Below, in pieces: positions 4,547 to 53,650 of a DNA stretch of 61,092 nt. Within the stretch, counting starts at the first letter, position 1, and the number at the start of each line of letters is the position of its first letter. The notes beneath the pieces were generated by a model that saw only the letters and a list, made by a program, of their open reading frames with translations, was not told the origin of the DNA and ran no database searches. Source of the DNA: Chlamydiota bacterium (lineage in GTDB: Bacteria > Chlamydiota > Chlamydiia > Chlamydiales > SM23-39); contig DAIDIZ010000044.1 in the NCBI GenBank assembly GCA_027451585.1, positions 1 to 61,092 of the forward strand. Direction: 5' to 3'. The translations under genes and the position numbers were made by a program.

Positions 4547-4683
4547 AAAGGGAAAACTCCTTTTTCCTCAAAACTCTAATCGACTGAGCGATTTACAAGC
4601 AATGGGAAGAAAATCGTCATTCTTATGTACAAGAAACCGTCGAATCAAAAGAATGTTGACTCAAACCGGAGGCATAATGAATC

Positions 4684-4779
4684 TATACTCGTTCCACCCC
4701 AAAATGGCCCAAGAAAACCGAATTTAAAGCATCAAATTTTTTATTGAAAATTTGATGCTTTAAATTCGGTTTTCTTGGG
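4684..4779. repeat. family A palindromic repeat (right outer arm missing)
   Basis: The sequence is TATACTCGTTCCACCCCAAAATGGCCCAAGAAAACCGAATTTAAAGCATCAAATTTT..AAAATTTGATGCTTTAAATTCGGTTTTCTTGGG. The inner 70 bp is a near-perfect palindrome. Confidence 0.85.
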
Positions 4780-4966: not shown

Positions 4967-5470
4967 ATGGACGATCTTTGGCAAATACTGAACGGAATTC
5001 CTTGGTGGGTCTATCTCCTCTTCATTATTCTTGTGAGACTAGGCCTTCGATCGATAAAACCAAGAACGATCACACTGCAAAGACTAAGTCTTCTTCCTCT
5101 TGTTTTCATCCTTTGGTCCCTGCTAAAGCTCTATCAGAATCACGGCTTTGCATTCCCTTCCCTAATCGTTTGGTGGATTCTCTGTTTAGGCATGGGCGCC
5201 TATCTCGGTGTCAAAGAAGTTTCCTCTTGGAAACTTCACGTAGATAAAGAGAAAAAAACCATCACCATTCCCGGCAATTACTCAACGCTTGTGTTGATCC
5301 TTGCCATTTTTATTCTCAATTTTTTCTGGGGCTATTTTTACGCCACTTCAAGGATCCCTATTCCTCATTGGATCCGGCTGGCTGATACCATCTCAACGAC
5401 CACCTGCACCGGCTTCTTCGTAGGAAGAGGCGGATTGTTTCTCAAACGATATCTCTCTCATCGGGGTTAG
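4967..5470 (+). CDS. integral membrane protein, 4-5 predicted TM helices (167 aa)
   Basis: Several hydrophobic stretches are present (WWVYLLFIILV, LLPLVFILWSLL, LIVWWILCLGMGAYL, LVLILAIFILNFFWGYF). No family recognised. Confidence 0.5.
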   Translation: MDDLWQILNGIPWWVYLLFIILVRLGLRSIKPRTITLQRLSLLPLVFILWSLLKLYQNHGFAFPSLIVWWILCLGMGAYLGVKEVSSWKLHVDKEKKTITIPGNYSTLVLILAIFILNFFWGYFYATSRIPIPHWIRLADTISTTTCTGFFVGRGGLFLKRYLSHRG

Positions 5471-5595
5471 ATCTGCCAATCGCCATTAGTTCCACATCCA
5501 CAGGGAACGCGCCTGAGGTAGCCCGCAAAACTCGCCTTGAGAAGAAATTTTGATGATTTTGGTCTTAGGCGATTTGCGAAAAATTACGCCCAACG

Positions 5596-6234
5596 TCAAA
5601 AAGGCAAAACCGCTTCCAAACGGAGTTTTGCGACAACCTCCTCTCTCATCCGGATTAAGGCTGCCTTGGTGACGGGGCCAATCGCCGTCAGCTTCACATC
5701 CGCAGGAAACGCACCAAAGAGCGCTAAAAACGCCTGAACAGTGGACGGGCTTGTAAACACAATCTCCTCCACTTCCGTCAACATGGGCGGTTTATCCACC
5801 CGATTGGGAAGCGGTTCATACAGATCGAACACAAACGAAGAAAACGGGGAAAGGAACTCTCCGAGTTTGTCCCTTGCCAGTTTCGATTTAGGCCAGAGGA
5901 GAAAGGCTTGCGACAGATCCATCGCTTTTAAAAGAGCGATGATCCCTTCTTGCGTTTCCTCTTGCGCAATCAGCGGAGAATAGCCCTTTTGCCGCAAAGC
6001 CTTTGCCGTCACCTCTCCTACAGCAATCGCTACAACGTCCCGATACGTCACCTCCTCGCACCAAAACCGGACCGCCGTTTGGCTCGTGAAAATCACATGG
6101 GTAAACTCTTTCCAACGTCGCTTTGCCTCGGCAAGCTCAGAAGAGAGGATCTTCTCGACCCGAATCACAGGGAAATGGACCAATTTTTTTTGTCTTGGAA
6201 ACCGACTAGGATCTAACCCTAAGTAAAGAATCAT
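5596..6234 (-). CDS. hemD: uroporphyrinogen-III synthase
   Basis: The pattern looks HemD-like (FPVIRVE, VIFTSQTAVRFW, IAVGEVTAKAL, IVFTSPSTVQAF). The start overlaps the hemC stop (ATGA). Confidence 0.7.
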   Translation of the reverse strand: MILYLGLDPSRFPRQKKLVHFPVIRVEKILSSELAEAKRRWKEFTHVIFTSQTAVRFWCEEVTYRDVVAIAVGEVTAKALRQKGYSPLIAQEETQEGIIALLKAMDLSQAFLLWPKSKLARDKLGEFLSPFSSFVFDLYEPLPNRVDKPPMLTEVEEIVFTSPSTVQAFLALFGAFPADVKLTAIGPVTKAALIRMREEVVAKLRLEAVLPF

Positions 6235-18542: not shown

Positions 18543-18545
18543 AGA

Positions 18546-18606
18546 TATACTCGTTCCACTCTAAAGATGCTCAAAAAAACCGAATTTAAAGCATCAAATT
18601 TTTATA
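18546..18606. repeat. family A repeat, left arm only
   Basis: The sequence is TATACTCGTTCCACTCTAAAGATGCTCAAAAAAACCGAATTTAAAGCATCAAATTT. It lies between convergent genes. Confidence 0.8.
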
Positions 18607-19560: not shown

Positions 19561-20162
19561 ATGACTATCCATCTATACACAGAATCACGCATTAGGAACC
19601 TACTGAATACCTTCGAAACTGTGGTCAACAGCTGCGCATCAGTAGTATCTCAGATTTATCATCAGGCGGTAACAAGCACCCCTAGGGAACAAGTAAGCAC
19701 TCCTGGAAAAGGATCGAATGAAGCCGCCCTCGTGACCTTCGATGATTGGCTTCGGGGCCATAAAGATCGTAAAGCGCAGGTTTGTCAGGAGGTAGTCCGT
19801 TGTACAGAACAAGCGTTGTATTCCCACTGCATAGCCCCCCCCCTTCCACGGGTGAAAAGACCGACATAACCCATGAGATCGACGCTCTTAGGGAATATAA
19901 TAATTTTTCTCTCGATACGTTAGGAGAGGGCAAACCCATAAGAGGTCCTAACACCAACGCCCTATTCGAAGGAGTTGCCACGGTAAAAGCGTGTAACCCC
20001 TGCCGGAACAATGTACCAGAAAGTGTTGTTCTAGAGGTCCATTTTCAAATAGAAAAAAATCTGGACCAATACGAAATTGCTATTATTGAGATTAAAAGCG
20101 AGAGCCAGGTCTACACTCTGGATAAACCGACACGTTCAAGCGACCTGTGGCCTGCATTTTAA
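19561..20162 (+). pseudogene. hypothetical gene split into two overlapping ORFs (19561-19869 and 19782-20162) at a C9 homopolymer
   Basis: AGAGG lies upstream of the ATG at 19561. A C9 run sits at about 19835-19843. The downstream frame stays open through the tract, and +1 C would fuse the two into about 200 aa. Confidence 0.45.
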
Positions 20163-20163
20163 A

Positions 20164-20201
20164 CCGGCCAAAAAACCGGCTTTTGAATCATTTCCGGTAT
20201 A
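20164..20201. repeat. family B repeat overlapping the hemE 3' end
   Basis: CCGGCCAAAAAACCGGCTTTTGAATCATTTCCGGTATA. The last four codons and the TGA of hemE lie inside it. Confidence 0.75.
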
Positions 20202-21147
20202 ACGCTGTATCAACAAAGCAACGAACGGCATCCACGGGGGTCTGCGGTTTCACCCCGTGGCCCAAATTCAAAATGAAGCCAGGATCCCCTTCCATCGCAT
20301 AGAGAAGCTCTTTTGTCTTTGTTCGGATTTGATCAAGGGGCTGAAACAGGAAATCGGGATCAAGATTCCCTTGAATAGGTTGTGCTGTTCTTTGCCTCCC
20401 CTCCCTTAGCGATATCGTCCAATCAAGGCTCAACCCGCATGGAATTTTTTCCACATAAGGGCCCATCTCACGCATGAAAAAAAGAGAGGGAAGGTTAATC
20501 GACGCAACACACCTTTGTAAAGGGAAAAGAGAATAGCGCTCATGCTCTTCTTTTGTCAGTACGTTGGCCCAAGAGTCGAAAATCTGTACAGCATCGACCC
20601 CAGCCTGTTTCTGGAGCTGCAAATAGGCGATCGTTGCATGTGTGATCTTATCAATGAGATTTTGGAACGTGAGAGGATCTCGCCGCATCCAATCGGTTGT
20701 TCTTTCTAAATCCCCGATCAAATAACTTGCCACCGTAAAGGGAGCTCCGCAAAACCCAAGCAAAGGAACTAAAAGATCCTGTTTTAAAAGACGAATTGTT
20801 TGGAAAATAGGCTCTAGTTTTTCGGGGAAAAAGGGAAGATGGTCTACATGGGATGGCGTCAATGGAGGGGTGATTTTGGGACCTTCTTGGAAATCGAGAT
20901 CAAAGCCTAAAGACAAAGCAATCACGGTGATGTCCGAAAAGAGAATCGCGGCATCAACTCCAAATCGATTGATCGGCATTTTGGTCACTTCGAAAGCGAG
21001 CTCGGGAGTCAAAAAGAGAGTCTTCAGAGAGTGTTTTTCGCGTAAACGTCGATACTCAGGAAGATAGCGCCCCGCTTGACGCATGAGCCAAACGGGCGCC
21101 CTTCCTCGATTTTCATTTTTGAGCGCTTGCAAAATTAAATGGTTCAA
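20188..21147 (-). CDS. hemE: uroporphyrinogen decarboxylase
   Basis: Contains PVWLMRQAGRYLPEYR and a GFCGAPFT-type core. The TTG start overlaps the tkt stop (TTGA). Confidence 0.95.
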   Translation of the reverse strand: MNHLILQALKNENRGRAPVWLMRQAGRYLPEYRRLREKHSLKTLFLTPELAFEVTKMPINRFGVDAAILFSDITVIALSLGFDLDFQEGPKITPPLTPSHVDHLPFFPEKLEPIFQTIRLLKQDLLVPLLGFCGAPFTVASYLIGDLERTTDWMRRDPLTFQNLIDKITHATIAYLQLQKQAGVDAVQIFDSWANVLTKEEHERYSLFPLQRCVASINLPSLFFMREMGPYVEKIPCGLSLDWTISLREGRQRTAQPIQGNLDPDFLFQPLDQIRTKTKELLYAMEGDPGFILNLGHGVKPQTPVDAVRCFVDTALYRK

Positions 21148-23193: not shown

Positions 23194-23845
23194 TTAGAGG
23201 CCGTGAGTTGTCGCAAAAACTCTTCGACAGGAACAACCGGAAAGCCTCGATACACCTCTCTTCTTTTTCCTTGTGTTGGGAGATAAATCAGAAGAGCGTT
23301 TCACTTCGATTGCCCCAAAACCCCGAGGCCCATAGATCACAAAATCCACTTCGAGCTTGGTGGCTGTCTGCCAAAAATAGAGAACATGCCTTTCTTTTTG
23401 CAAATGGACCCAAGCTCTTATATACTCGTTCCACTCCAAAATGGCCCAAGAAAACCGAATTTAAAGCATCAATTTTTTATTGGAAATTTGATGGCTTTAA
23501 ATCGGCTTGCTTGGGCCATTTTGGAGTGGAACGAGTATAGACAGATGTAATCCCTTAACGTCTGATCAGGGTGCTTTGCCCCCCAAATAAGAGAGATCAT
23601 CCCCGTTTTTCCTCGATCAAAGCATGGATCTCGGGCAAAAGATGAGGAACTCGTTGCACCTCATCGAGAATGAGCGCTTGTCCCGGACGCATCGCGGCAA
23701 CCACATCACGAATCTTCTCAGGCGCTGCCAGGGAGAGCCTCTCCTCTTCACCTAAAAGAAGGTCGACCTCCCCGTCCCCCCAGGACCGAGAAGAAAATAG
23801 CTCTCTTCGGGAGGAGCAAGCTCCCTTTCTGTGTAATCTGCTAAC
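23194..23845 (-). pseudogene. decayed AAA+ ATPase (AAA_14 + DUF4143-type) gene, frameshifted and interrupted by a family A repeat
   Basis: The minus strand reads MLADYTERELAPPEESYFLLGPGGTGRSTFF*, then ...ALILDEVQRVPHLLPEIHALIEE in another frame. The repeat follows, then LEVDFVIYGPRGFGAIEVKRS. Confidence 0.6.
23421..23539. repeat. family A palindromic repeat, full-length type copy (119 bp)
   Basis: TATACTCGTTCCACTCCAAAATGGCCCAAG...CTTGGGCCATTTTGGAGTGGAACGAGTATA. The outer 30 bp of the two arms are perfectly complementary. Confidence 0.9.
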
Positions 23846-23967
23846 ATAGTTGGTATTTTACACAAAAAATATCACATCTCACTAACAATAAAGATTTTAT
23901 GGCATTAAATTCACAAAAATAGAGAACAAATATTAGTGTGATAAGGAAAAATAAAAAGCGTGTGCAT

Positions 23968-25278
23968 ATGACTTTATTCAGCGCCCCAACAAAAAAAAGA
24001 ACCCGTTCCGAAGCCATTTTTAAGACCCATTGCAACCTGATCCCCGGAGGAGTCAATTCGCCTGTCCGCGCCTTTCACTCGGTTGAGATGACACCGCCGC
24101 TCATCGTCGTCTCTGGGTCGGGTGATACGATCGAAGATGTGGATGGGAATCGGTACATCGACTACTGCGGCAGCTGGGGAGCGATGATCCTCGGACACGC
24201 CCATCCTCAGGTGGTAAAAGGGGTTCAGGAGCGAATGGCGCTCGGCTCTTCGTTTGGGATCACCACGGTAGAAGAGGGGCTTCTTGCCCAAAAAATCGTT
24301 AAGAAAATCCCCTCGATCGAAAAAATTCGCTTTGTGAGCTCGGGGACCGAAGCCACCATGACAGCGCTGCGACTTGCTCGAGGCTACACAGGCCGATCCA
24401 AAGTCATCAAATTCACCGGTCACTACCATGGCCACTCAGACGCTCTTCTTGTCCAAGCGGGATCTGGGGTAGCGACCCTCAATTCAACAGCCACCTCGAA
24501 AGGGGTCCATGCTCATATCGTCCAAGACACCCTTTGCTTTCCATTCAACGATTTCGAAAAGATCCGAAGCTTCTTCAAAACACCGCTTTCTAAAGAGGTC
24601 GCTGCGATCATTCTAGAGCCGATAGCGGGGAACATGGGGACCGTTCTTCCTGATAGAGGTTTTCTGGAGATGCTTCGGGAAGAGACCACTAAAGCAGGGG
24701 CTCTCTTGATTTTTGATGAAGTGATCACCGGCTTTCGTGTGGGACCAAAGGGAGCGCAAGGACTCTACCCGGTCGATCCCGACCTCACCTGCTTTGGAAA
24801 AATCATCGGGGGGGGATTTCCGGTCGCAGCGGTTGCAGGGAAAGCCAAAATCATGGACTATCTCGCCCCTCTTGGGCAAGTGTACCAGGCAGGAACCCTC
24901 TCTGGAAACCCAGTTGCTATGCGAGCAGGATTAGAAACCCTTTTGCAATTGGAAGCGCCCCATTTCTACGAAACCTTGCAAAAGAAAACAGATCGACTCC
25001 TCAACCCCATCCGAGAAGCCGTCCAAGTATCTGGCGGATGCCTCCAAGAATGTGGATCGATGTTTTCTATTTTCTTTGGCTTATCTCAAGTCAAATCGAA
25101 AGAAGATCTCGTCTCGCTCAATAAAAAGAGATTTCGTGAATTGTTTTCGTATCTCTTTGACAGGGGTATTTACATTCCCCCCTCATCACAGGAAGCGTGG
25201 TTTGTCTCAAGCGCCCATACCGATGAACATCTCGATTATACAGCAAAGTCGGTCTGTTCATTTTTAAGCAGTCTCTAA
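23968..25278 (+). CDS. hemL: glutamate-1-semialdehyde 2,1-aminomutase
   Basis: Contains IPGGVNSPVRAF, SGTEATM, FDEVITGFR and GKIIGGGFP (PLP lysine region). I used the ATG at 23968. The track GTG is at 23938. Confidence 0.95.
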   Translation: MTLFSAPTKKRTRSEAIFKTHCNLIPGGVNSPVRAFHSVEMTPPLIVVSGSGDTIEDVDGNRYIDYCGSWGAMILGHAHPQVVKGVQERMALGSSFGITTVEEGLLAQKIVKKIPSIEKIRFVSSGTEATMTALRLARGYTGRSKVIKFTGHYHGHSDALLVQAGSGVATLNSTATSKGVHAHIVQDTLCFPFNDFEKIRSFFKTPLSKEVAAIILEPIAGNMGTVLPDRGFLEMLREETTKAGALLIFDEVITGFRVGPKGAQGLYPVDPDLTCFGKIIGGGFPVAAVAGKAKIMDYLAPLGQVYQAGTLSGNPVAMRAGLETLLQLEAPHFYETLQKKTDRLLNPIREAVQVSGGCLQECGSMFSIFFGLSQVKSKEDLVSLNKKRFRELFSYLFDRGIYIPPSSQEAWFVSSAHTDEHLDYTAKSVCSFLSSL

Positions 25279-25284
25279 AAATTA

Positions 25285-25329
25285 GGCCGGAAATGATTCA
25301 AAAGTCGATTTTTGCATCATTTCCGGTAA
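25285..25329. repeat. family B palindromic repeat
   Basis: GGCCGGAAATGATTCAAAAGTCGATTTTTGCATCATTTCCGGTA, located 7 nt after the hemL stop. Confidence 0.8.
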
Positions 25330-25424: not shown

Positions 25425-25847
25425 ATGACTTCCAACGCGAGTTCACCACAAGTCCCATCCCCGCCTTTTAGACCCCATCCAACATCATTTTCACGCCCCT
25501 TTCCAACACAAAAGGATCAAGTCCTCAGTGTGGATTTCGATAAAGTGGCTTTAGTGGGTACACTTAAACTCTTCCCTACAGAACAGCTAAAACCTTCATT
25601 CTTAGACTGCCTTACTACAGGCTTCGCCTACGCTTTCGGAGCTAGCTTGGGTATGATTAGCGGATTCGTGGTCATTTCTGTAATTAAGAGGATTTTTCAA
25701 AGCGAATTCGGACCAGAAGCGCCAACTGGAGAGGCGGCACCGAGGATTTTTCAGAGCAGATTCGGACCAGAAGCGCCAACTGATGGGGCGATACCGGGGA
25801 TTGCTCTCCAGACAATCTCATCGCGTTTCTTCGGACCCATTTCCTAA
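25425..25847 (+). CDS. hypothetical membrane protein with tandem 18-aa repeat
   Basis: Pro/Ser-rich N-terminus, a hydrophobic segment (GFAYAFGASLGMISGFVVISVI), and RIFQS(E/R)FGPEAPT repeated twice. Confidence 0.5.
   Translation: MTSNASSPQVPSPPFRPHPTSFSRPFPTQKDQVLSVDFDKVALVGTLKLFPTEQLKPSFLDCLTTGFAYAFGASLGMISGFVVISVIKRIFQSEFGPEAPTGEAAPRIFQSRFGPEAPTDGAIPGIALQTISSRFFGPIS
25689..25796 (+). repeat. 2 x 54-bp in-frame tandem repeat
   Basis: The units start AGGATTTTTCAAAGCGAATTCGGACCAGAAGCGCCAACTG... and AGGATTTTTCAGAGCAGATTCGGACCAGAAGCGCCAACTG... They differ at about 9 of 54 positions. Confidence 0.9.
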
Positions 25848-25865
25848 CAAAGATCGCAAGCACTA

Positions 25866-25985
25866 TTTACTCGCTCGAGTCTAAAGTTACCTTAAGAAAA
25901 CCGAATTTGAAGCGTCAAATTCCCAGTAAAAATTTGACGCTTTAAACTCGGTTTTCTTAAGGTAACTTTAATTGGTGAATTGATA
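25866..25985. repeat. family A repeat, divergent copy with compensated arms
   Basis: CTAAAGTTACCTTAAGAAAACCGAATTTGAAGCGTCAAATT...AATTTGACGCTTTAAACTCGGTTTTCTTAAGGTAACTTTAA. Confidence 0.8.
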
Positions 25986-36017: not shown

Positions 36018-36086
36018 ATCTCGACTTTGTACATTTTTTGAACGCACTCTCCGGAGATTCCGGCAAAAAATGTACAAAGTCGAGAT
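36018..36086. repeat. family C palindromic repeat, full copy (69 bp)
   Basis: ATCTCGACTTTGTACATTTTTT...AAAAAATGTACAAAGTCGAGAT. The 22-bp arms are perfect and the spacer is 25 bp. Confidence 0.9.
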
Positions 36087-47119: not shown

Positions 47120-48433
47120 ATGGAAAAGCCCTCTTTTGACAAGCTAATGAGCCAACTCGAAGAGGTAGAACTGACCACGGTTCACGGAAGAATTACCGAA
47201 GTGGTCGGGATGCTGATCCGGGCCGTCATCCCTCAAGTGAGAATGGGAGAGATGTGCCTGATTAAAAGAGAGGGGGATCCGCTTGCAGCCGAAGTGGTCG
47301 GCTTTACAAAAGAAGAGGTTATTCTCTCTCCTCTCGGAGATATGCGAGGGATCGGCCCTTCTTCAGAAGTGATCCCGATGCGGATGCCAATGCACATCAA
47401 GGTGGGAAAAAACCTGCTCGGTAGAGTGCTCAATGGACTAGGACAGCCGCTTGACGAAGATACCCACGGCCCTCTCATTCTCGATGAAACGATTCCTGTC
47501 ATGAATCCCCCCCCTGATCCCCTTAAACGGATGTTGATCAAAGAGCCTCTGCCCGTCGGCGTTCGCTGTATCGACGGCGTTTTGACCTGCGGAAAAGGGC
47601 AGCGGATCGGTATTTTCGCTGCAGCTGGGGTGGGAAAATCGACTCTTCTCGGCATGATCGCTCGCAATGCAGTAGCAGACATCAACGTAATCTCTCTCAT
47701 CGGAGAGCGCGGGAGAGAGGTTAGAGAGTTCTTAATCAATGACTTAGGAACTGCTGGCATGAAACGTTCCGTGATCATCGTCTCCACCTCGGATCAGGCA
47801 GCTCAGATGCGCATCAACGCCGCTTATGTGGGGACTGCGATTGCTGAGTATTTCCGCGACCAAGGGAAATCGGTCATCTTGATGATGGATTCAGTGACCC
47901 GCTTTGCAAGGGCCTTGCGCGAGATTGGACTTGCAGCAGGAGAGCCCCCCGCGCGTGCAGGATATACCCCTTCGGTATTTGCCGTTCTTCCTCGTCTCCT
48001 TGAGCGCTCAGGTAACTCAGAGAAAGGATCGATCACCGCTTTTTACACGATTTTGGTCGCTGGCGACGATCTCAACGAGCCGGTTGCCGATGAAGTCCGT
48101 TCTATTTTAGATGGTCACATCGTCCTCTCTGCAGAGTTAGCCCGTCAACACCACTACCCTGCCATCGACGTCCTCGCCTCGGTAAGCCGTATCCTTCCCC
48201 ATATCATCGATAAATCCCACCTGCAACTCACAGGCCAATTGAGAGAAGTACTGGCCAATTACAAAAAAAACGAACTGCTGATCAAAATTGGAGAATATAA
48301 AGCGGGCTCTGATAAAAATGCCGACTTTGCTTTGAAGTACATCGATAAAGTCCACCGATTTCTGAAACAGCAAATCGATGAAAAACCCACATTTGAAGAG
48401 ACTCTGCGCCAACTGAGATCTCTTTTTACATGA
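47120..48433 (+). CDS. sctN: T3SS ATPase SctN (CdsN)
   Basis: Walker A GIFAAAGVGKSTLLGMI, Walker B VILMMDSVTRFA, and GSITAFYTILV. It has the F1/FliI-like layout. Confidence 0.97.
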   Translation: MEKPSFDKLMSQLEEVELTTVHGRITEVVGMLIRAVIPQVRMGEMCLIKREGDPLAAEVVGFTKEEVILSPLGDMRGIGPSSEVIPMRMPMHIKVGKNLLGRVLNGLGQPLDEDTHGPLILDETIPVMNPPPDPLKRMLIKEPLPVGVRCIDGVLTCGKGQRIGIFAAAGVGKSTLLGMIARNAVADINVISLIGERGREVREFLINDLGTAGMKRSVIIVSTSDQAAQMRINAAYVGTAIAEYFRDQGKSVILMMDSVTRFARALREIGLAAGEPPARAGYTPSVFAVLPRLLERSGNSEKGSITAFYTILVAGDDLNEPVADEVRSILDGHIVLSAELARQHHYPAIDVLASVSRILPHIIDKSHLQLTGQLREVLANYKKNELLIKIGEYKAGSDKNADFALKYIDKVHRFLKQQIDEKPTFEETLRQLRSLFT

Positions 48434-48514
48434 CAGGATCCAAGAGAAAAAACAAGATATGCAAGGTGTAATACGAATTAACATTGCATTTGGCAAGATC
48501 GGAGATTCGAGGCT

Positions 48515-48562
48515 TATACCGGAAATGATGCAAAAGTCGGCTTTTGAATCATTTCCGGTATA
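48515..48562. repeat. family B palindromic repeat, full type copy (48 bp)
   Basis: TATACCGGAAATGATGCAAAAGTCGGCTTTTGAATCATTTCCGGTATA. Confidence 0.9.
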
Positions 48563-48571
48563 TCGCCGATA

Positions 48572-48617
48572 TATACCCATTCCACTCCAAAATGGCCCAA
48601 ACAAACCGAATTGAAAA
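48572..48617. repeat. family A repeat, left-arm fragment abutting the autotransporter start
   Basis: TATACCCATTCCACTCCAAAATGGCCCAAACAAACCGAATTGAAA. Confidence 0.7.
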
Positions 48618-50881
48618 TGAAAAAATGGGCTCTCTCTTTCTTTTCCATCCCCCTTCTCGCAGCCTACTCTCCCGTGCCCACTTATATCACGGATCCTCCA
48701 GGAAGCCAACTCTACCTCATCGACCCAGTCACTAACACAGCCGTGCAAACAATAGGCAATAGCACCTCTGTCCCTTTTTCACGTCCGCAAGGAATTGCGT
48801 TAAGTCCCGATCGGACTTTTGGGTACATGATGGATAACTTAAGTTCCTCCATTTACTACATCGATACAGCAAAAAACCAAGCGACGGGACTGGTGCAAAA
48901 TACAACAGGAAGACCCTTTGGAGATTTGCTCGGGGTTGCGATCAGTCCGAACGGACAATTTGCCTATGCGGCAGATAACACGGGGGCCCTCTATTACATT
49001 GATGTAAAGAGCAATACGGCCTCTACAGCTATCACCCAAGCGGCAGGGACCCCCTTTACATCGCCCGCCCTTGTCGCTATTTCTCCTGATTCCTCTTTTG
49101 CTTATCTCTCCAACTACGTCGGAACTCCCAATATCTATGTCATCCAAACAGCCACCAATACCGCGACCATTTTAAACAATATAACGGGAACCCCATTTTC
49201 CTCTCCGATCGGGGTGGCTATTAGTCTCGATGGGACCTTTGGCTACATCACCGATACAACGGGCAAGGTTTTTTATGTAGATACAGCAACGAACACAGCG
49301 ACACAGCTCGTCACCAATCTCACGGGAACCCCCTTTAGTGCCCCTATCGGAGTGGCGATTAGTCCCGACAGCTCCTTTGTTTATGTAGCGGATCCTGGAA
49401 GCTCCTCTGTTTTCTTGATTGATCCAAAGACAAATACAGCAACGAATAAAATTGCGGTCCCGAGTATTGGGGCCCCCTCATCCAACCCAATTGCGATCAG
49501 TCCGGATGGACAATTCGCCTACGTGGGAGGCGGAGCTGGAGCCTCTATCTACTCAATCGATGTGGCAACAGGACGCGTTCTCTCCACCTCAAATGCTTCG
49601 GGAATCCCTTTTACTGGACCACTTTGGGTGGCGATGCCTCTTCCCCGTATCTCGACGACCACTCTTTCAGGGAATAACTTAATTTTAGCTAATTATCTCA
49701 ATCAAAATGCCCCTTTTCCCACCCAACTTCCTTTTGCGCTACTCTCAGGAAATGCCCTCATCCAAGCTCTTGAAATGGCAGCCCCTACTCGCAACGCCTT
49801 TTTTACATTTGCAGCGCAAATCAACCAAATCGCCATTGGGAATCTTCTATCAGACCGGATGACCCAAATCCGATTTCGCAATCAGAAAGCAAAAGCAGTG
49901 CCCTCCCTTGCCTCCTATCTCAACGAAATCGATCTCGACTCTCTTTACGCCGAATCAGAATATCCCTACTACTACAAAACTCGTTATCGAGCGCCACCTC
50001 CCCCGGCCTCATCTTCGAAAAAAGAGCCAAGAGAGCGATTCGGGGGAATCTGGCTCGGCGGATTTGGCCAGTACTCCCGCGAAAAGAGTCAAGACCAAAC
50101 ACCCTCCTTTCACGCCGGTTCAACAGGAGCAATCCTCGGTCTCGACTTCCGCTCAGTAGCAGCTCCCTTCTCCCGGATTTTAGGCTTAGCTGCGGCTTAC
50201 GCTTATACCAACTTGCACGAAAACGAAGGATTTGGCAGAGCCCGCCTCAATCAAGGAGTGGGAGGGTTTTACGGCGATTTTTCAGCGAAGCACGGGTATG
50301 CCAATTTCGCCTTTTGGGGAGGTTACTACCAAGCCCATAATATCCGAAACATTGCGTTTTCCAATATCCAGGGAGAAGCCAGAATGAAAACGGAAGGGTG
50401 GATGTTCACTCCTCATGTAGAGATTGGAGCGAGAATGGTATCCGGATGGCTAGGAGCGAGCCTCTTCACGCTCGCTGACTTTGTCCATTCTTGGGAAAAA
50501 GGGGCCTCTGAATCGGGCAATACACCCCTGAATTTCCACCAGAAAGGGAGAAAAGCCTCTCTTGCGAGAAGTGAAACAGGGATCCGGCTCCAAGAAACCT
50601 TTTCCTATCCTTGGGGGACTGTTTCCCTCAATCAAAAGGGGAGCTACGCCTACCAAAAAACTCTTAAGACAGGAAGAATCACAGCCTTTTTGATTGACTC
50701 TCCTGGAGAGTTTACCGTGAACACCTTTAAGTCTTCTGGAAATTTAGGAATCGCTGAATTCGGAGTTCTTTTGACCCCTGAAAAGAAACAATACCCCGAA
50801 TGGAGCTTGAGCTACCACGGAGAAATCGGCTCTCAATACCAATCGCACGAAGGCACCTTCGAAATCACCTTGCATTTTTAA
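48617..50881 (+). CDS. autotransporter with 7-bladed YVTN-type beta-propeller passenger
   Basis: Signal peptide MKKWALSFFSIPLLAAYS. There are seven repeats of about 44 aa (..Y.ID..TNTA......G.PF..P.GVAISPD..F.Y..). The C-terminal beta-barrel region runs from about 50038 (GGIWLGGFGQYSRE...) and ends in ...ITLHF. I used the ATG at 48617. The track TTG is at 48611. Confidence 0.8.
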   Translation: MKKWALSFFSIPLLAAYSPVPTYITDPPGSQLYLIDPVTNTAVQTIGNSTSVPFSRPQGIALSPDRTFGYMMDNLSSSIYYIDTAKNQATGLVQNTTGRPFGDLLGVAISPNGQFAYAADNTGALYYIDVKSNTASTAITQAAGTPFTSPALVAISPDSSFAYLSNYVGTPNIYVIQTATNTATILNNITGTPFSSPIGVAISLDGTFGYITDTTGKVFYVDTATNTATQLVTNLTGTPFSAPIGVAISPDSSFVYVADPGSSSVFLIDPKTNTATNKIAVPSIGAPSSNPIAISPDGQFAYVGGGAGASIYSIDVATGRVLSTSNASGIPFTGPLWVAMPLPRISTTTLSGNNLILANYLNQNAPFPTQLPFALLSGNALIQALEMAAPTRNAFFTFAAQINQIAIGNLLSDRMTQIRFRNQKAKAVPSLASYLNEIDLDSLYAESEYPYYYKTRYRAPPPPASSSKKEPRERFGGIWLGGFGQYSREKSQDQTPSFHAGSTGAILGLDFRSVAAPFSRILGLAAAYAYTNLHENEGFGRARLNQGVGGFYGDFSAKHGYANFAFWGGYYQAHNIRNIAFSNIQGEARMKTEGWMFTPHVEIGARMVSGWLGASLFTLADFVHSWEKGASESGNTPLNFHQKGRKASLARSETGIRLQETFSYPWGTVSLNQKGSYAYQKTLKTGRITAFLIDSPGEFTVNTFKSSGNLGIAEFGVLLTPEKKQYPEWSLSYHGEIGSQYQSHEGTFEITLHF

Positions 50882-50885
50882 AAGT

Positions 50886-51407
50886 ATGGCAGAACCGCAA
50901 AAATATCCTCTCGAACAAGTGATCTCGATCAAACAAAAACGCTTTGATCAAGCGGTGAAAACGCTCGAAATCAAAAAAGAGATTCTCGAAAAAGCGTATG
51001 AAAGACTCTATGATCTCAACGAAGAGAAAACCAAAGTACAGGAACATAAGAAAAGCAAACTCACCCAATTGCGAGAGGGGCTTGATCAGGGAATCTCCAC
51101 CGATAAGATCCAGCAAATGAAATTCTATTTGAAAACGGTGGAAGAAAAGCTCCTGGAACACCAGAAAAAAGTTGATGCACAGCAAAAAGTTGTCGACCAA
51201 GCACAAACAGAGGTAGATAAAGCAACCGATGACCTATTTCAGAAGAAAAAAGATCTGGAGAAAATGGAAATCCATAAAAAAGAGTGGAATAAAGAAGAAG
51301 CCTATCTAGTTGAACGAAAAGAAGAAGTAGAACATGATGAGCAAGGATCGGCCACTCATGAGAGAGTGAAGCGCGAGAGGAAGAAACAGAAAGATGGCAG
51401 TAAATAA
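50886..51407 (+). CDS. sctO: T3SS stalk protein SctO (CdsO/YscO-like)
   Basis: 173-aa all-coiled-coil K/E-rich protein in the position expected after sctN. The N-terminus KYPLEQVISIKQKRFDQA matches what I recall of CT670. Confidence 0.65.
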   Translation: MAEPQKYPLEQVISIKQKRFDQAVKTLEIKKEILEKAYERLYDLNEEKTKVQEHKKSKLTQLREGLDQGISTDKIQQMKFYLKTVEEKLLEHQKKVDAQQKVVDQAQTEVDKATDDLFQKKKDLEKMEIHKKEWNKEEAYLVERKEEVEHDEQGSATHERVKRERKKQKDGSK

Positions 51408-52536
51408 AATTGGCGATACATCTCCTACAGATCCGAATAAAGAGTCGAGCAATCCAGTAGAGCACCGAAAAGTAGAAAAGGTGGAAAAGATTCAAGGGGT
51501 CAGTGAAACGGAAAATGAGCGGAGAAGAAGATCCTTTCAACGATTCATGGAAAGTGATGACGAAACCTCCACACAAGAAAAAGCCCCATCTCCTTACGAA
51601 AGTTCCTTTTTCAAAGCAGCGCCCCCTCTCGAGGATCTTCAAAACAACATCGTTCCCGACGCCTCTTCTACGCCCCCTCCTCACGTAAATCAAACAACCT
51701 CAAGACAAAAAACAAGCCGTCCAGAATCATCCCTTCCTCACAGCCATCAATTCTGGTCTAAAGCAGAACCGACGACCTCCCATCAGAAAACCCCGATAAA
51801 AAAAGACGCTCCAGAAAAGAAAGAAAAAAAACTACCCCAAGCCACTCAAGCATTCCCCTCTGTTTACGCGCCTCCTGGGAAAACCATTCTCTCTGTAGAA
51901 GAAGAAAAGAAAAAACAAACAGAGATAAGAGAAAAAAAGAAAGGGGTACTGGGACTTGTTCAAGAAGAAAAAGGGGGACTCATTCCCGATGTGAAATCCC
52001 TTGAAAAAGAACATCGAGAAAGAGAGAAAAACACGAAAACTCTTTCGCTCGAAGAGAAGATCGACCCCTCCCAATTTCACACTCTCGCACCTCCCGCTTT
52101 CTCAGCTGCCCAGACCGCGATCACAAATGCCACCCCCCACTTAAATCACGAAATTTCCCCCCTCTTTTTTCAGATGGTCGGATCGATCTACACGATCATT
52201 GAAAAACCAGGGATTTTCACAACAGAGATCGTCTTGAACGCCAAAGCCTTTGTCAATTCCCCCTTCTTTGGGATGAAGATTGCAATTGAAAAGTATGCAA
52301 CAGCGCCTAATTCGCTCAATATTCGTCTTATTGGCAATCAGCAATCGGTAAAAGTATTTGAAAAGAACATCCCCAGCCTCTATACAGCCTTTCAAAACGG
52401 AAATTTTAATTTTCAAATTGGAAGAATCTCGACCGAGTACGCCATCGAGCGCCCCCTATTTCGGAGAAAAGAATCGGGAGAAGGAAAAAGAGAATCTGGA
52501 GGAGATGAGATGAAAGACCCAAGAGGAGATCGGTGA
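51394..52536 (+). CDS. sctP: T3SS needle-length/substrate-switch protein SctP (CdsP)
   Basis: Disordered P/S/K/E-rich N-terminal two-thirds. A FliK/YscP-like T3S4 C-terminal domain follows (TEIVLNAKAF..FGMKIAIEKY...LNIRLIGNQQSVKVFEKNIPSLYTAFQ). Confidence 0.6.
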   Translation: MAVNKIGDTSPTDPNKESSNPVEHRKVEKVEKIQGVSETENERRRRSFQRFMESDDETSTQEKAPSPYESSFFKAAPPLEDLQNNIVPDASSTPPPHVNQTTSRQKTSRPESSLPHSHQFWSKAEPTTSHQKTPIKKDAPEKKEKKLPQATQAFPSVYAPPGKTILSVEEEKKKQTEIREKKKGVLGLVQEEKGGLIPDVKSLEKEHREREKNTKTLSLEEKIDPSQFHTLAPPAFSAAQTAITNATPHLNHEISPLFFQMVGSIYTIIEKPGIFTTEIVLNAKAFVNSPFFGMKIAIEKYATAPNSLNIRLIGNQQSVKVFEKNIPSLYTAFQNGNFNFQIGRISTEYAIERPLFRRKESGEGKRESGGDEMKDPRGDR

Positions 52537-53606
52537 ATAAACAACCCTGGATGAATCGACTATCCACCTACTTCGAAGAAAAACAAGAGATTCCCCTTTT
52601 TGGGAACTCTCCCCCCTTTCCTTGGGAACTCTTTTCCTCTGAGCTCGGCAGAGAACTCGGGATCGAAGAATGTACCGTTCGACTAAAAGGACAAAAGTGG
52701 AGAGAGGCTGAAGAGTGGAAAAAAGGACAAGGATCCCATCTGATCGTACAACCCATCACCATCGCTCCATTTGAATCACCTCTTTATTGGATGATGGCCA
52801 AAACCGAAGTAGAGAAATTAACAAGCCGGCTCCTCTCAGGAAGCGGAAAAAAACGAGAATTCTCCTCGTCCTCTCTTCAAGAGGGTTACTACCGTTTTCT
52901 GCTCCTCGAAGCTCTTTATGCAGCCCAGATGCAAGGTCCAATTGAAGGGATGACGATCCAATTGAATGATGAAGAAGCCCCTCCTCATGAAAAAGGGCTT
53001 TGCCTCGATATTGAGATCCAGATCGAAGAAATAACCCTGCAAGGGAGATTGGTCATCCCTTCTTCTTTTCAGACCGCTTGGATCCAACATTTTTCCGCAT
53101 TCCCCCGCCCCTTCTCTCCTGGAAGACTCTCTTTAAAACTGCCCTTGTCACTCAAAATCCAAATTGGATCGATCGAACTCTCCTCCCAAGAATGGGGAAA
53201 TTTAGAATTGGGAGACATTTTGATTCCTGATACACTCTTTCAAAAAGAGCCGCTCCTCATTCTCGGTAACATTCCCCTTTTTCAAACTCATCTCAAAAAC
53301 AAAGAACTCACACTTAACCACTACACCTCCGAGGCACCCATGGACGAAGAAACATTTTTAGAGCATCTCGACACCTCAGAACAAGACGCAGAGAAAATGA
53401 GAGATATTCCTCTTCAGATTAAGATTGAAATCGGACAGATCGGCATGACGCTCGGCGAGCTAATGGAATTAAGTCCCGGTCACGTTCTCAAACTCCCTCC
53501 TCACGCAGAGAATAAAATCCATCTCGCTGTGAACGGAAAAAAAATTGGCACAGGAGAACTCATCGAAGTAGGAGAAACTCTCGGAATCCGACTAATCGAA
53601 ATCTAA
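52533..53606 (+). CDS. sctQ: T3SS cytoplasmic sorting platform protein SctQ (CdsQ)
   Basis: C-terminal SpoA/FliN domain (IPLQIKIEIGQIGMTLGELMELSPGHVLKL...LAVNGKKIGTGELIEVGETLGIRL). The GTGA overlaps sctP. Confidence 0.85.
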   Translation: MNKQPWMNRLSTYFEEKQEIPLFGNSPPFPWELFSSELGRELGIEECTVRLKGQKWREAEEWKKGQGSHLIVQPITIAPFESPLYWMMAKTEVEKLTSRLLSGSGKKREFSSSSLQEGYYRFLLLEALYAAQMQGPIEGMTIQLNDEEAPPHEKGLCLDIEIQIEEITLQGRLVIPSSFQTAWIQHFSAFPRPFSPGRLSLKLPLSLKIQIGSIELSSQEWGNLELGDILIPDTLFQKEPLLILGNIPLFQTHLKNKELTLNHYTSEAPMDEETFLEHLDTSEQDAEKMRDIPLQIKIEIGQIGMTLGELMELSPGHVLKLPPHAENKIHLAVNGKKIGTGELIEVGETLGIRLIEI

Positions 53607-53614
53607 TAATCTTT

Positions 53615-53650
53615 ATCTCGACTTTGTACATTCTTTGCCGGCATCTCCGC
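53615..53650. repeat. family C repeat, single arm
   Basis: ATCTCGACTTTGTACATTCTTTGCCGGCATCTCCGC is the reverse-complement type of the 873-916 copy. Confidence 0.75.

Follow-up and report, generated by a model that had tools for sequence, protein, structure and literature searches.

A predicted seven-bladed propeller autotransporter gene occupies an insertion hot spot between sctN and sctO in a chlamydial type III secretion cluster

The 61,092-nt stretch of DNA analysed here (the window; contig DAIDIZ010000044.1 of the Chlamydiota bacterium assembly GCA_027451585.1) carries a type III secretion (T3SS) gene cluster in which an open reading frame (ORF) of 754 codons, predicted to encode an autotransporter, separates the ATPase gene sctN from sctO. 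All genes of the block lie on the + strand, in the order CesT-like chaperone, sctD, DUF5398, sctF, tetratricopeptide repeat (TPR) chaperone, sctL, sctN, autotransporter, sctO, sctP, sctQ and sctC (Table 1). Genes, order and single strand are identical to those of the chlamydial cluster cdsD...cdsN-cdsO-cdsP-cdsQ-...-cdsC, but the window carries a 2.45-kb insertion between cdsN and cdsO, where most loci of the outer chlamydial lineages have 25 nt or less. An earlier note on this DNA, made from the sequence alone, had described a 754-aa gene between sctN and sctO that stops 4 nt before the latter. The ORF (ATG at 48617, TAA at 50879-50881) and its Pfam-identified neighbours confirm this, with 50882-50885 separating the stop from the sctO ATG at 50886; an in-frame TTG at 48611, upstream of the ATG, was judged a less likely start codon. 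Further downstream, sctP and sctQ each overlap the gene before them, which fits one transcription unit with sctO. SctN is 84-88% identical to its counterparts in related chlamydial metagenome-assembled genomes (MAGs), and SctO 60-76%. The autotransporter gene itself has a GC content of 0.492, a third-position GC content (GC3) of 0.489 and a relative synonymous codon usage (RSCU) distance of 0.086, all inside the range of the neighbouring genes. Recent horizontal transfer was considered and ruled out: because it does not stand out from the window in composition or codon usage, the gene is not a recent foreign import.

Table 1. Features of the sctN-sctC segment of the window (AF2, AlphaFold2; pLDDT, predicted local distance difference test; REP, repetitive extragenic palindromic).
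Feature	Position	Strand	Basis
sctN (cdsN), T3SS ATPase, upstream flank	47120-48433	+	Pfam ATP-synt_ab E 4e-89, T3SS_ATPase_C E 1.5e-23
sctN-autotransporter intergenic region, 183 nt	48434-48616		strongly structured
Repeat B, dispersed REP-like hairpin, stem ~21 bp	48514-48560		repeat search, fold, blastn within window
Repeat A, one arm of ~120-nt dispersed palindromic element, ends at autotransporter ATG	48570-48616	+	repeat search, copy alignment
Autotransporter gene, 754 aa, 0 Cys	48617-50881	+	ORF, Pfam, motif count, AF2, codon usage
Putative Sec signal peptide, aa 1-16 (MKKWALSFFSIPLLAA)	48617-48664	+	read from sequence; homologs with hydrophobic N-terminus; AF2 pLDDT <50 for aa 1-17
Passenger, predicted seven-bladed YVTN beta-propeller, aa 20-343, 28 strands	48674-49645	+	AF2, Foldseek, profile against PDB, TIGR02276, repeat starts
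Conserved helical domain, aa 350-421 (LSGNNLxLANYLNxNAP...ALExxAPTRNAF)	49664-49879	+	homolog alignment, AF2 helices 352-421
Low-complexity disordered linker, aa 424-473	49886-50035	+	pLDDT <50; poorly aligned among homologs
Predicted autotransporter beta-barrel, aa 476-754, 12 long strands, terminal Phe	50042-50878	+	PF03797, TIGR01414, Foldseek EstA, DSSP strands
sctO (cdsO)	50886-51407	+	YscO-like E 5e-37
sctP	51394-52536	+	position, tblastn conservation
sctQ	52533-53606	+	FliMN_C E 1.6e-19
sctC secretin, downstream cluster end	53799-57410	+	Secretin_N, Secretin, GspD N0 domains

Taken together, Pfam and TIGR profiles, the AF2 model, Foldseek matches and motif counts place the protein, by prediction, among the classical (type Va) autotransporters, its passenger being a YVTN propeller, and not among the polymorphic membrane proteins (Pmps). 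The N terminus (MKK-WALSFFSIPLLAA-YS) consists of MKK and a 13-residue hydrophobic stretch followed by AA before the Y. Seven repeat units begin at aa 33, 80, 126, 174, 219, 266 and 312, and TIGR02276, which models the YVTN repeat, reaches 37.5 bits (cutoff 27.85). In the PDB, a profile that combines the protein with ten full-length homologs matches the surface-layer propeller 1l0q (E 2.7e-52) and the autotransporter EstA (3kvn, E 4.5e-5). The AF2 model, computed from the homolog alignment, has a mean pLDDT of 82.9 and a predicted TM-score of 0.77. It places propeller strands at aa 22-340 (pLDDT ~90), helices at aa 352-421, disorder at aa 424-473 and 12 long strands at aa 476-753 (pLDDT mostly 80-95); the N-terminal strand of aa 22-26 probably closes the last propeller blade, and the disordered linker presumably spans the barrel pore. 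Foldseek returns 1l0q as the top match of the model (E 2e-19, TM 0.65 normalised to the target) and aligns the barrel with EstA (3kvn, E 8e-13), and the best propeller matches, 1l0q and the WRAP-T designs, are all seven-bladed.

The barrel is covered by PF03797 over aa 478-718 (E 1.3e-21, 77.9 bits against a cutoff of 26), while TIGR01414 is barely over its threshold (17.9 against 16 bits), and the protein ends in ...ITLHF. GGA[ILV] motifs number zero and FxxN occurs once, at aa 699 inside the barrel; neither Pmp repeat nor Pmp middle-domain profiles appear among the Pfam matches at E<=0.01. The earlier note had read most of this layout from the letters: a signal-peptide-like N terminus, which is directly visible and similar in homologs; a C-terminal barrel ending in an aromatic residue, now backed by PF03797, the 12 modelled strands, the Foldseek match to EstA and the final Phe; a passenger devoid of Pmp motifs; and seven tandem YVTN-type repeats of about 44 aa. 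Modelling returned both the seven-bladed propeller and the 12-strand barrel. Repeat number and type hold, and only the unit spacing has to be corrected, to 45-48 aa.

Among known proteins, 1l0q, the YVTN propeller of a Methanosarcina mazei surface-layer protein, is the best match in both sequence and structure, and shares the seven blades and the location at the cell surface. It is archaeal, however, its propeller is followed by a PKD domain, and it is anchored in another way, without an autotransporter barrel. EstA of Pseudomonas aeruginosa (PDB 3kvn) resembles the window protein in having a passenger that is not beta-helical and a C-terminal 12-strand barrel with an aromatic end; the putative signal sequence of the window protein would be a further likeness. 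Compared with EstA and with classical autotransporters, the window protein carries a seven-bladed propeller in place of a GDSL lipase or a beta-helix, and its barrel is preceded by a helical domain of ~70 aa and ~50 aa of disorder instead of one short linker helix. Chlamydial Pmps are autotransporter surface adhesins (PMC2811131, PMC9289746); they share the PF03797 barrel with the window protein, but have a predicted beta-helix passenger with GGA(I/L/V)/FxxN motifs.

The closest functional precedent is XatA of Xylella, a classical autotransporter with tandem repeats of ~50 aa and the one characterised case of a passenger predicted to be a propeller; XatA is found in the outer membrane and promotes autoaggregation, biofilm formation and virulence (PMC3426408). 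XatA is gammaproteobacterial, has six LGxL-type repeats where the window protein has seven of YVTN type, and comes without T3SS context; the two are likened by description, not by sequence. According to a 2022 review, published passenger structures fall into three architectural types, none of which is a propeller (PMC9289746). Although many database sequences belong to it, as described below, the propeller class is thus essentially undescribed save for XatA. Because the closest fold is a cell-surface propeller and XatA mediates autoaggregation and biofilm formation, the passenger is, by analogy, probably a surface binding module.

Alternatively, the passenger could be a surface-displayed enzyme, a hydrolase of lactonase or arylesterase type, for which EstA offers the precedent of an enzymatic passenger that is not beta-helical (PMC9289746). 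Whole-protein Pfam scores of 41.7 bits for SGL, 41.5 for Arylesterase and 33.2 for Lactonase, all over cutoff, would be in line with such an activity. These scores, however, are generic blade similarity summed along the protein: no stretch passes alone for Arylesterase or Lactonase and one short stretch does for SGL, so that full-length matches to the SGL, arylesterase and lactonase profiles are lacking and only partial or summed blade matches are seen. SGL and arylesterase propellers are six-bladed, as against the seven blades of the window passenger. The dominant match is to the non-enzymatic surface-layer propeller 1l0q, and the NCBIfam enzyme equivalogs fall far under cutoff. We regard an enzymatic passenger as very improbable.

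Beyond the window, a word-indexed search returned about ten full-length relatives at 28-44% identity, and an exhaustive search of 1.84 billion cluster representatives returned 379 at E<=1e-30, dozens of which match end to end. Many matches are restricted to aa ~340-754 and continue into other, often much longer N-terminal parts, so the conserved unit appears to be the helical domain, linker and barrel, with interchangeable passengers. The helical domain (aa 350-421) is the most conserved segment of the family and is common to relatives with other passengers; its invariant columns are L350, N353, N354, Y360, N362, L385, P390, R392 and N393. No Pfam family matches it, and its sole PDB match, CroV588 (6nyr, E 1e-8), was rejected as spurious, being the sum of eleven weak matches to FNIP leucine-rich repeats, each with E >40.

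We examined ~33 further family loci, seven located by exact-protein lookup and 25 by scanning metagenomes with an alignment of the family (one of them, L092, shares a contig with L001), and found no T3SS genes within their fetched flanks. Some members at least are chlamydial. One, P0009, lies on a contig of MAG clean353, which is also the source of a T3SS locus (L048), and the cluster of another, P0241, includes one protein annotated as Chlamydiales. P0241 is the best homolog (45% identity) and lies ~120 kb from a T3SS cluster (L013) on the same 1.92-Mb contig. In its locus (L117; contig CAWHDP010000002.1; 5221-7077, 2292-2702) it sits beside an IS66-family transposase and a protein with a group II intron maturase domain, and a YopT-like protein of the Peptidase_C58 family is also present, which suggests a mobile, accessory neighbourhood. 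Gene neighbours vary between the family loci, and a conserved ancestral home locus was sought and could not be defined, L001 and L117 having only the autotransporter gene in common. The best explanation is that this sizeable, uncharacterised family is present among environmental Chlamydiota and changes position in their genomes. As a separate observation, a 1304-aa autotransporter with PATR repeats and a barrel lies directly upstream of the propeller homolog P0002 in L001 (3985-7899), so that family members can be clustered.

The position of the gene was compared across Chlamydiota by scanning a chlamydial SctO alignment against one genome per species, which gave 80 sctO loci, and locating the T3SS genes by tblastn. 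The loci were split by SctO identity to the window into outer lineages (<56%; record titles include Parachlamydiaceae, Simkaniaceae and Rhabdochlamydiaceae) and the window's clade (>=56%), which by SctN and SctO is an uncultured one with Chlamydiae, Chlamydiales or Parachlamydiales in its record titles. Outside this clade, the junction between sctN and sctO is mostly 25 nt or shorter (median 16 nt), and a single locus of 32, L060, exceeds 200 nt and also 500 nt. Adjacency of the two genes, which the earlier note had given as the normal state, thus holds at 31/32 loci. Within the clade, by comparison, the junction reaches at least 500 nt at 21 of 34 loci, with a median of 800 nt and a maximum of 2688 nt, and more loci of the clade have sctO without any sctN upstream. 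Six of the seven other junctions from sctD to sctQ never exceed 200 nt in the clade. Gaps between sctO and sctP were considered as further insertions and rejected, as they arise because SctP varies in length and is poorly conserved.

A rough neighbour-joining (NJ) tree of SctN and SctO groups the variable loci in one derived clade, in which the nearest relatives of the window differ at the junction and hold other ORFs (51 nt in L053, 787 nt in L020 and 1205 nt in L008). By tblastn, none of the 80 loci has an autotransporter homolog between sctN and sctO. Because of this absence and of the differences among the nearest relatives, the placement is derived and lineage-specific, and the gene is not ancestral at this position. 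We conclude that the sctN-sctO junction is a recurrent insertion and breakpoint hot spot in the window's clade, and that the autotransporter gene is a lineage-specific occupant of it. The chlamydial pangenome literature that we searched treats the T3SS as conserved core and does not mention a variable sctN-sctO junction. Two independent assemblies of the relative closest in SctO (76% identical), L088 and L089, both stop 120-154 nt upstream of sctO, as would fit a junction with repeats or with differences between strains in that lineage too.

The commonest cargo at the junction of relatives consists of at least 23 small ORFs in 15 loci (listed gaps: L010-L014, L016, L021-L025, L028, L034, L045), mostly on the opposite strand and each with a single hydrophobic domain that lacks charges, is 40-55 residues long and starts at about aa 30-80. 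Fifteen of these ORFs form one sequence family and stand in two or three tandem copies per locus. A single bilobed hydrophobic domain is the typical pattern of chlamydial inclusion-membrane (Inc) proteins, and the Inc-like ORFs are possible new T3SS effectors. The remaining cargo includes a toxin of HipA type, which is accompanied by its N-terminal partner, as well as one AlbA_2/HATPase_c_4 and one XRE-like protein and several polar proteins without a family. At three loci (L027, L044 and L046) the cluster is broken at the junction, and the 6 kb directly upstream of sctO hold housekeeping genes instead of sctN: thioredoxin-reductase-like, glycogen phosphorylase, phosphate (PHO4) transporter, amino-acid permease and sulfatase genes. 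A tblastn search with all gap ORFs found no remnants of the relatives' cargo in the window. One further gap, in L026, contains a 256-aa 'ORF' (5064-5834) made of tandem units of ~47 aa (…RFIHAPPRPLFPRFAAYPFSLPLYLPFSVLKFMP…), which is probably repetitive non-coding DNA and not a gene.

The long junction of the outer lineages (L060, MAG PMV_8.15) is a second, independent type V insertion at this site. Between the sctN stop at 665 and the sctO start at 5998, it carries a TpsB of ShlB/FhaC type (550 aa) and a 1222-aa exoprotein with a TPS domain, both in operon orientation and with gaps of 25 nt and 44 nt. Like the window gene, this type Vb pair is operon-oriented and tightly packed between sctN and sctO; it differs in belonging to another subtype, in its unrelated sequence and in coming from a distant lineage (SctO 51% identical).

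From what seemed an exceptional placement, the earlier note had argued for a functional link with the injectisome, and this step did not survive the comparison: the junction holds many unrelated genes, and family members elsewhere never adjoin T3SS genes. Within the clade, insertions and breaks are general at the junction, so the placement, though unusual, does not show such a link. The idea can be put as a contact adhesin that is tied to the injectisome, co-regulated with sctOPQ, placed by selection and holding the host membrane for the needle. The operon orientation and the 4 nt before sctO do keep the polarity of the operon, and tpsB/tpsA of L060 occupy the same slot in the same orientation as an independent type V case. 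The commonest cargo of the relatives, moreover, is Inc-like and so includes putative T3SS substrates, from which it follows that the slot tends to hold host-interaction genes. Against this, the association with a T3SS is seen in one of ~33 family loci and at 0/80 other chlamydial sctO loci, the slot also accepts toxin-antitoxin genes, a Schlafen/AlbA_2 protein and, at breakpoints, housekeeping genes, and with ~35 junctions occupied or broken, two events of type V could arise by chance. A docking adhesin in this specific sense is therefore improbable, and we give just as little credence to the wider version in which sctN-sctO is a dedicated accessory slot for host-interaction genes expressed with the machine and the propeller is a contact adhesin that positions the needle. 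The position of the gene is better explained by the local insertion hot spot than by function.

On its upstream side, the gene is preceded by a 183-nt gap (48434-48616) whose RNA fold reaches -57.7 kcal/mol (z = -4.4 against shuffles) and which is filled by repeats B and A, the A arm running up to the ATG, as the earlier note had described. Consensus and relaxed promoter scans of the + strand found neither a consensus sigma-70-type promoter nor an intrinsic terminator in this gap. Repeat A is an element of ~120 nt with 56-nt arms that looks REP-like or like a miniature inverted-repeat transposable element (MITE). Its seven full or half copies in the window (4682-4779, 18544-18602, 23419-23541, 25864-25970, 48570-48616, 58782-58953 and 60916-60962) are always intergenic. 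Repeat B, a 47-nt hairpin, is found at 20171-20205, 25282-25328, 48514-48560 and 60870-60916. Two of these copies lie 3-9 nt past stop codons, at 25282 after the gene 23938-25278 and at 20171 after the gene 19782-20162, and the copy at 60870 is joined to an A arm. The composite of B followed by A is thus present twice, at 48514-48616 and at 60870-60955, the latter ~80 nt upstream of an ORF that starts at 61039 and runs off the window. Neither repeat was found by blastn in 116 related loci, and this absence makes both genome-specific.

Repeats at a contig-internal join raise the possibility that sctN and the autotransporter gene were brought together by a metagenome chimera at dispersed B/A copies. 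The join is indeed covered by repeats found elsewhere in the contig, and the contigs of the closest SctO relatives (L088 and L089) break just upstream of sctO. The copies, however, are short (47 nt) and 62-96% identical, no exact run seen in common between them is longer than 27 nt, and the composition of the gene matches that of the contig, all of which makes such an artefact extremely improbable. The join between the autotransporter gene and sctO is without a repeat, so the linkage to sctOPQ would hold even if the sctN join were false.

Because the genes share a strand, stand 4 nt apart and have no terminator-like site on the + strand, co-transcription with the late half of the operon, as proposed earlier, is plausible, and the autotransporter gene is most likely co-transcribed with sctO-sctP-sctQ. 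Barring a promoter in the 3' end of the autotransporter gene, where a promoter scan found none, expression of sctO, sctP and sctQ would now depend on transcription through it. The transcript could begin inside the repeat-filled gap, or it could arise by read-through from sctN that passes the B hairpin. The 51-nt junction of L053 suggests a continuous operon in the immediate ancestor, and the location of two of the three other B copies just past stop codons suggests that B may act as a 3'-end element. In relatives whose sctN-sctO gap carries opposite-strand genes (L010, L011, L013, L014, L016, L021, L022, L023 and L034), a conserved block of ~38 nt (CCCATTTGCCAGCAATCACTTAGGTCAGGTAAAGTTTG; TTGCCA-N18-TAAAGT) lies 36-79 nt before sctO. 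Together with the opposite-strand cargo, this block gives sctO a candidate promoter of its own in those genomes. The promoter-like block is absent from the window.

A different arrangement would have the B hairpin end or stabilise an sctD-sctN transcript, with autotransporter, sctO, sctP and sctQ forming a second unit whose non-consensus promoter would lie in the A repeat. In that case, the present promoter of sctOPQ would have come with the insertion or been created by it. The B stem of ~21 bp, the post-stop location of the two other copies and the recurrence of the B-A composite ahead of another + strand ORF are compatible with such a split, as are the separate promoter that sctO seems to have in many relatives and the physical break of the cluster at sctN-sctO in three genomes. 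The hairpin is not followed by a U-tract, however, and 48561-48616 shows no promoter-like hexamers. The conserved promoter block of the relatives is also missing here, and L053, the nearest relative with a short junction, looks co-transcribed. We consider a split operon possible but rather unlikely.

The reading that we favour, with a probability of about 0.6, is that the gene encodes an intact type Va propeller autotransporter inserted at the hot spot, probably co-transcribed with sctOPQ and probably acting as a surface binding protein. Following the type Va model, the putative Sec signal peptide would direct the protein to the periplasm, and the beta-barrel assembly machinery (BAM) would insert the 12-strand C-terminal barrel into the outer membrane. 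The cysteine-free passenger would then be threaded out from its C to its N terminus, the propeller closing when the strand of aa 22-26 joins the last blade; absence of cysteine fits a passenger that crosses the membrane unfolded. The propeller, standing on a helical stalk, would be displayed at the surface as a ligand-binding, adhesin-like module. At the level of the genome, a member of the family would have landed, in operon orientation, at a site that recurrently receives accessory genes, mostly ones for host interaction.

Several points weigh against this interpretation. The N terminus is signal-peptide-like by eye, the pore-spanning segment of aa 424-473 is modelled without confidence, and a helical domain with ~50 disordered residues before the barrel is not a textbook linker. 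Propellers can be enzymes, and there are weak Pfam matches to the SGL and arylesterase families. Judging by its post-stop positions, B could be where a transcript has its 3' end, ahead of the autotransporter gene and after sctN, and the remaining 56 nt past B (48561-48616) hold no recognisable promoter. The statement about the clade rests on a rough NJ tree of SctN and SctO.

The locus combines an ordinary secretion mechanism with an unusual passenger and a unique position, and leaves the understanding of T3SS and type V secretion unchanged. Hundreds of cluster representatives pair a propeller or another passenger with the helical domain and barrel translocator, and the family offers a natural test of C-to-N export and folding for a closed, velcro-type fold. 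Rigid synteny is the usual assumption for chlamydial T3SS clusters; here one junction is a hot spot in one clade, often with Inc-like cargo, and could serve in the search for new effectors of uncultured chlamydiae. In this organism, the product of the autotransporter gene is a candidate surface antigen or adhesin, and its expression is probably tied to that of sctOPQ. More useful leads than the docking idea are the hot spot, for the Inc-like genes it carries, and the pair of independent type V insertions.

Two minor features of the window lie away from the sctN-sctO junction. A third dispersed repeat (core GGAGATGCCGGCAAAAAATGTACAAAGTCGAGA) occurs at 884-916, 36034-36085 and 53615-53649, the last copy falling within the 192-nt gap between sctQ and sctC. 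Within the ORF 25425-25847, a 54-nt unit is tandemly duplicated at 25688-25795, with 85% identity between the copies.

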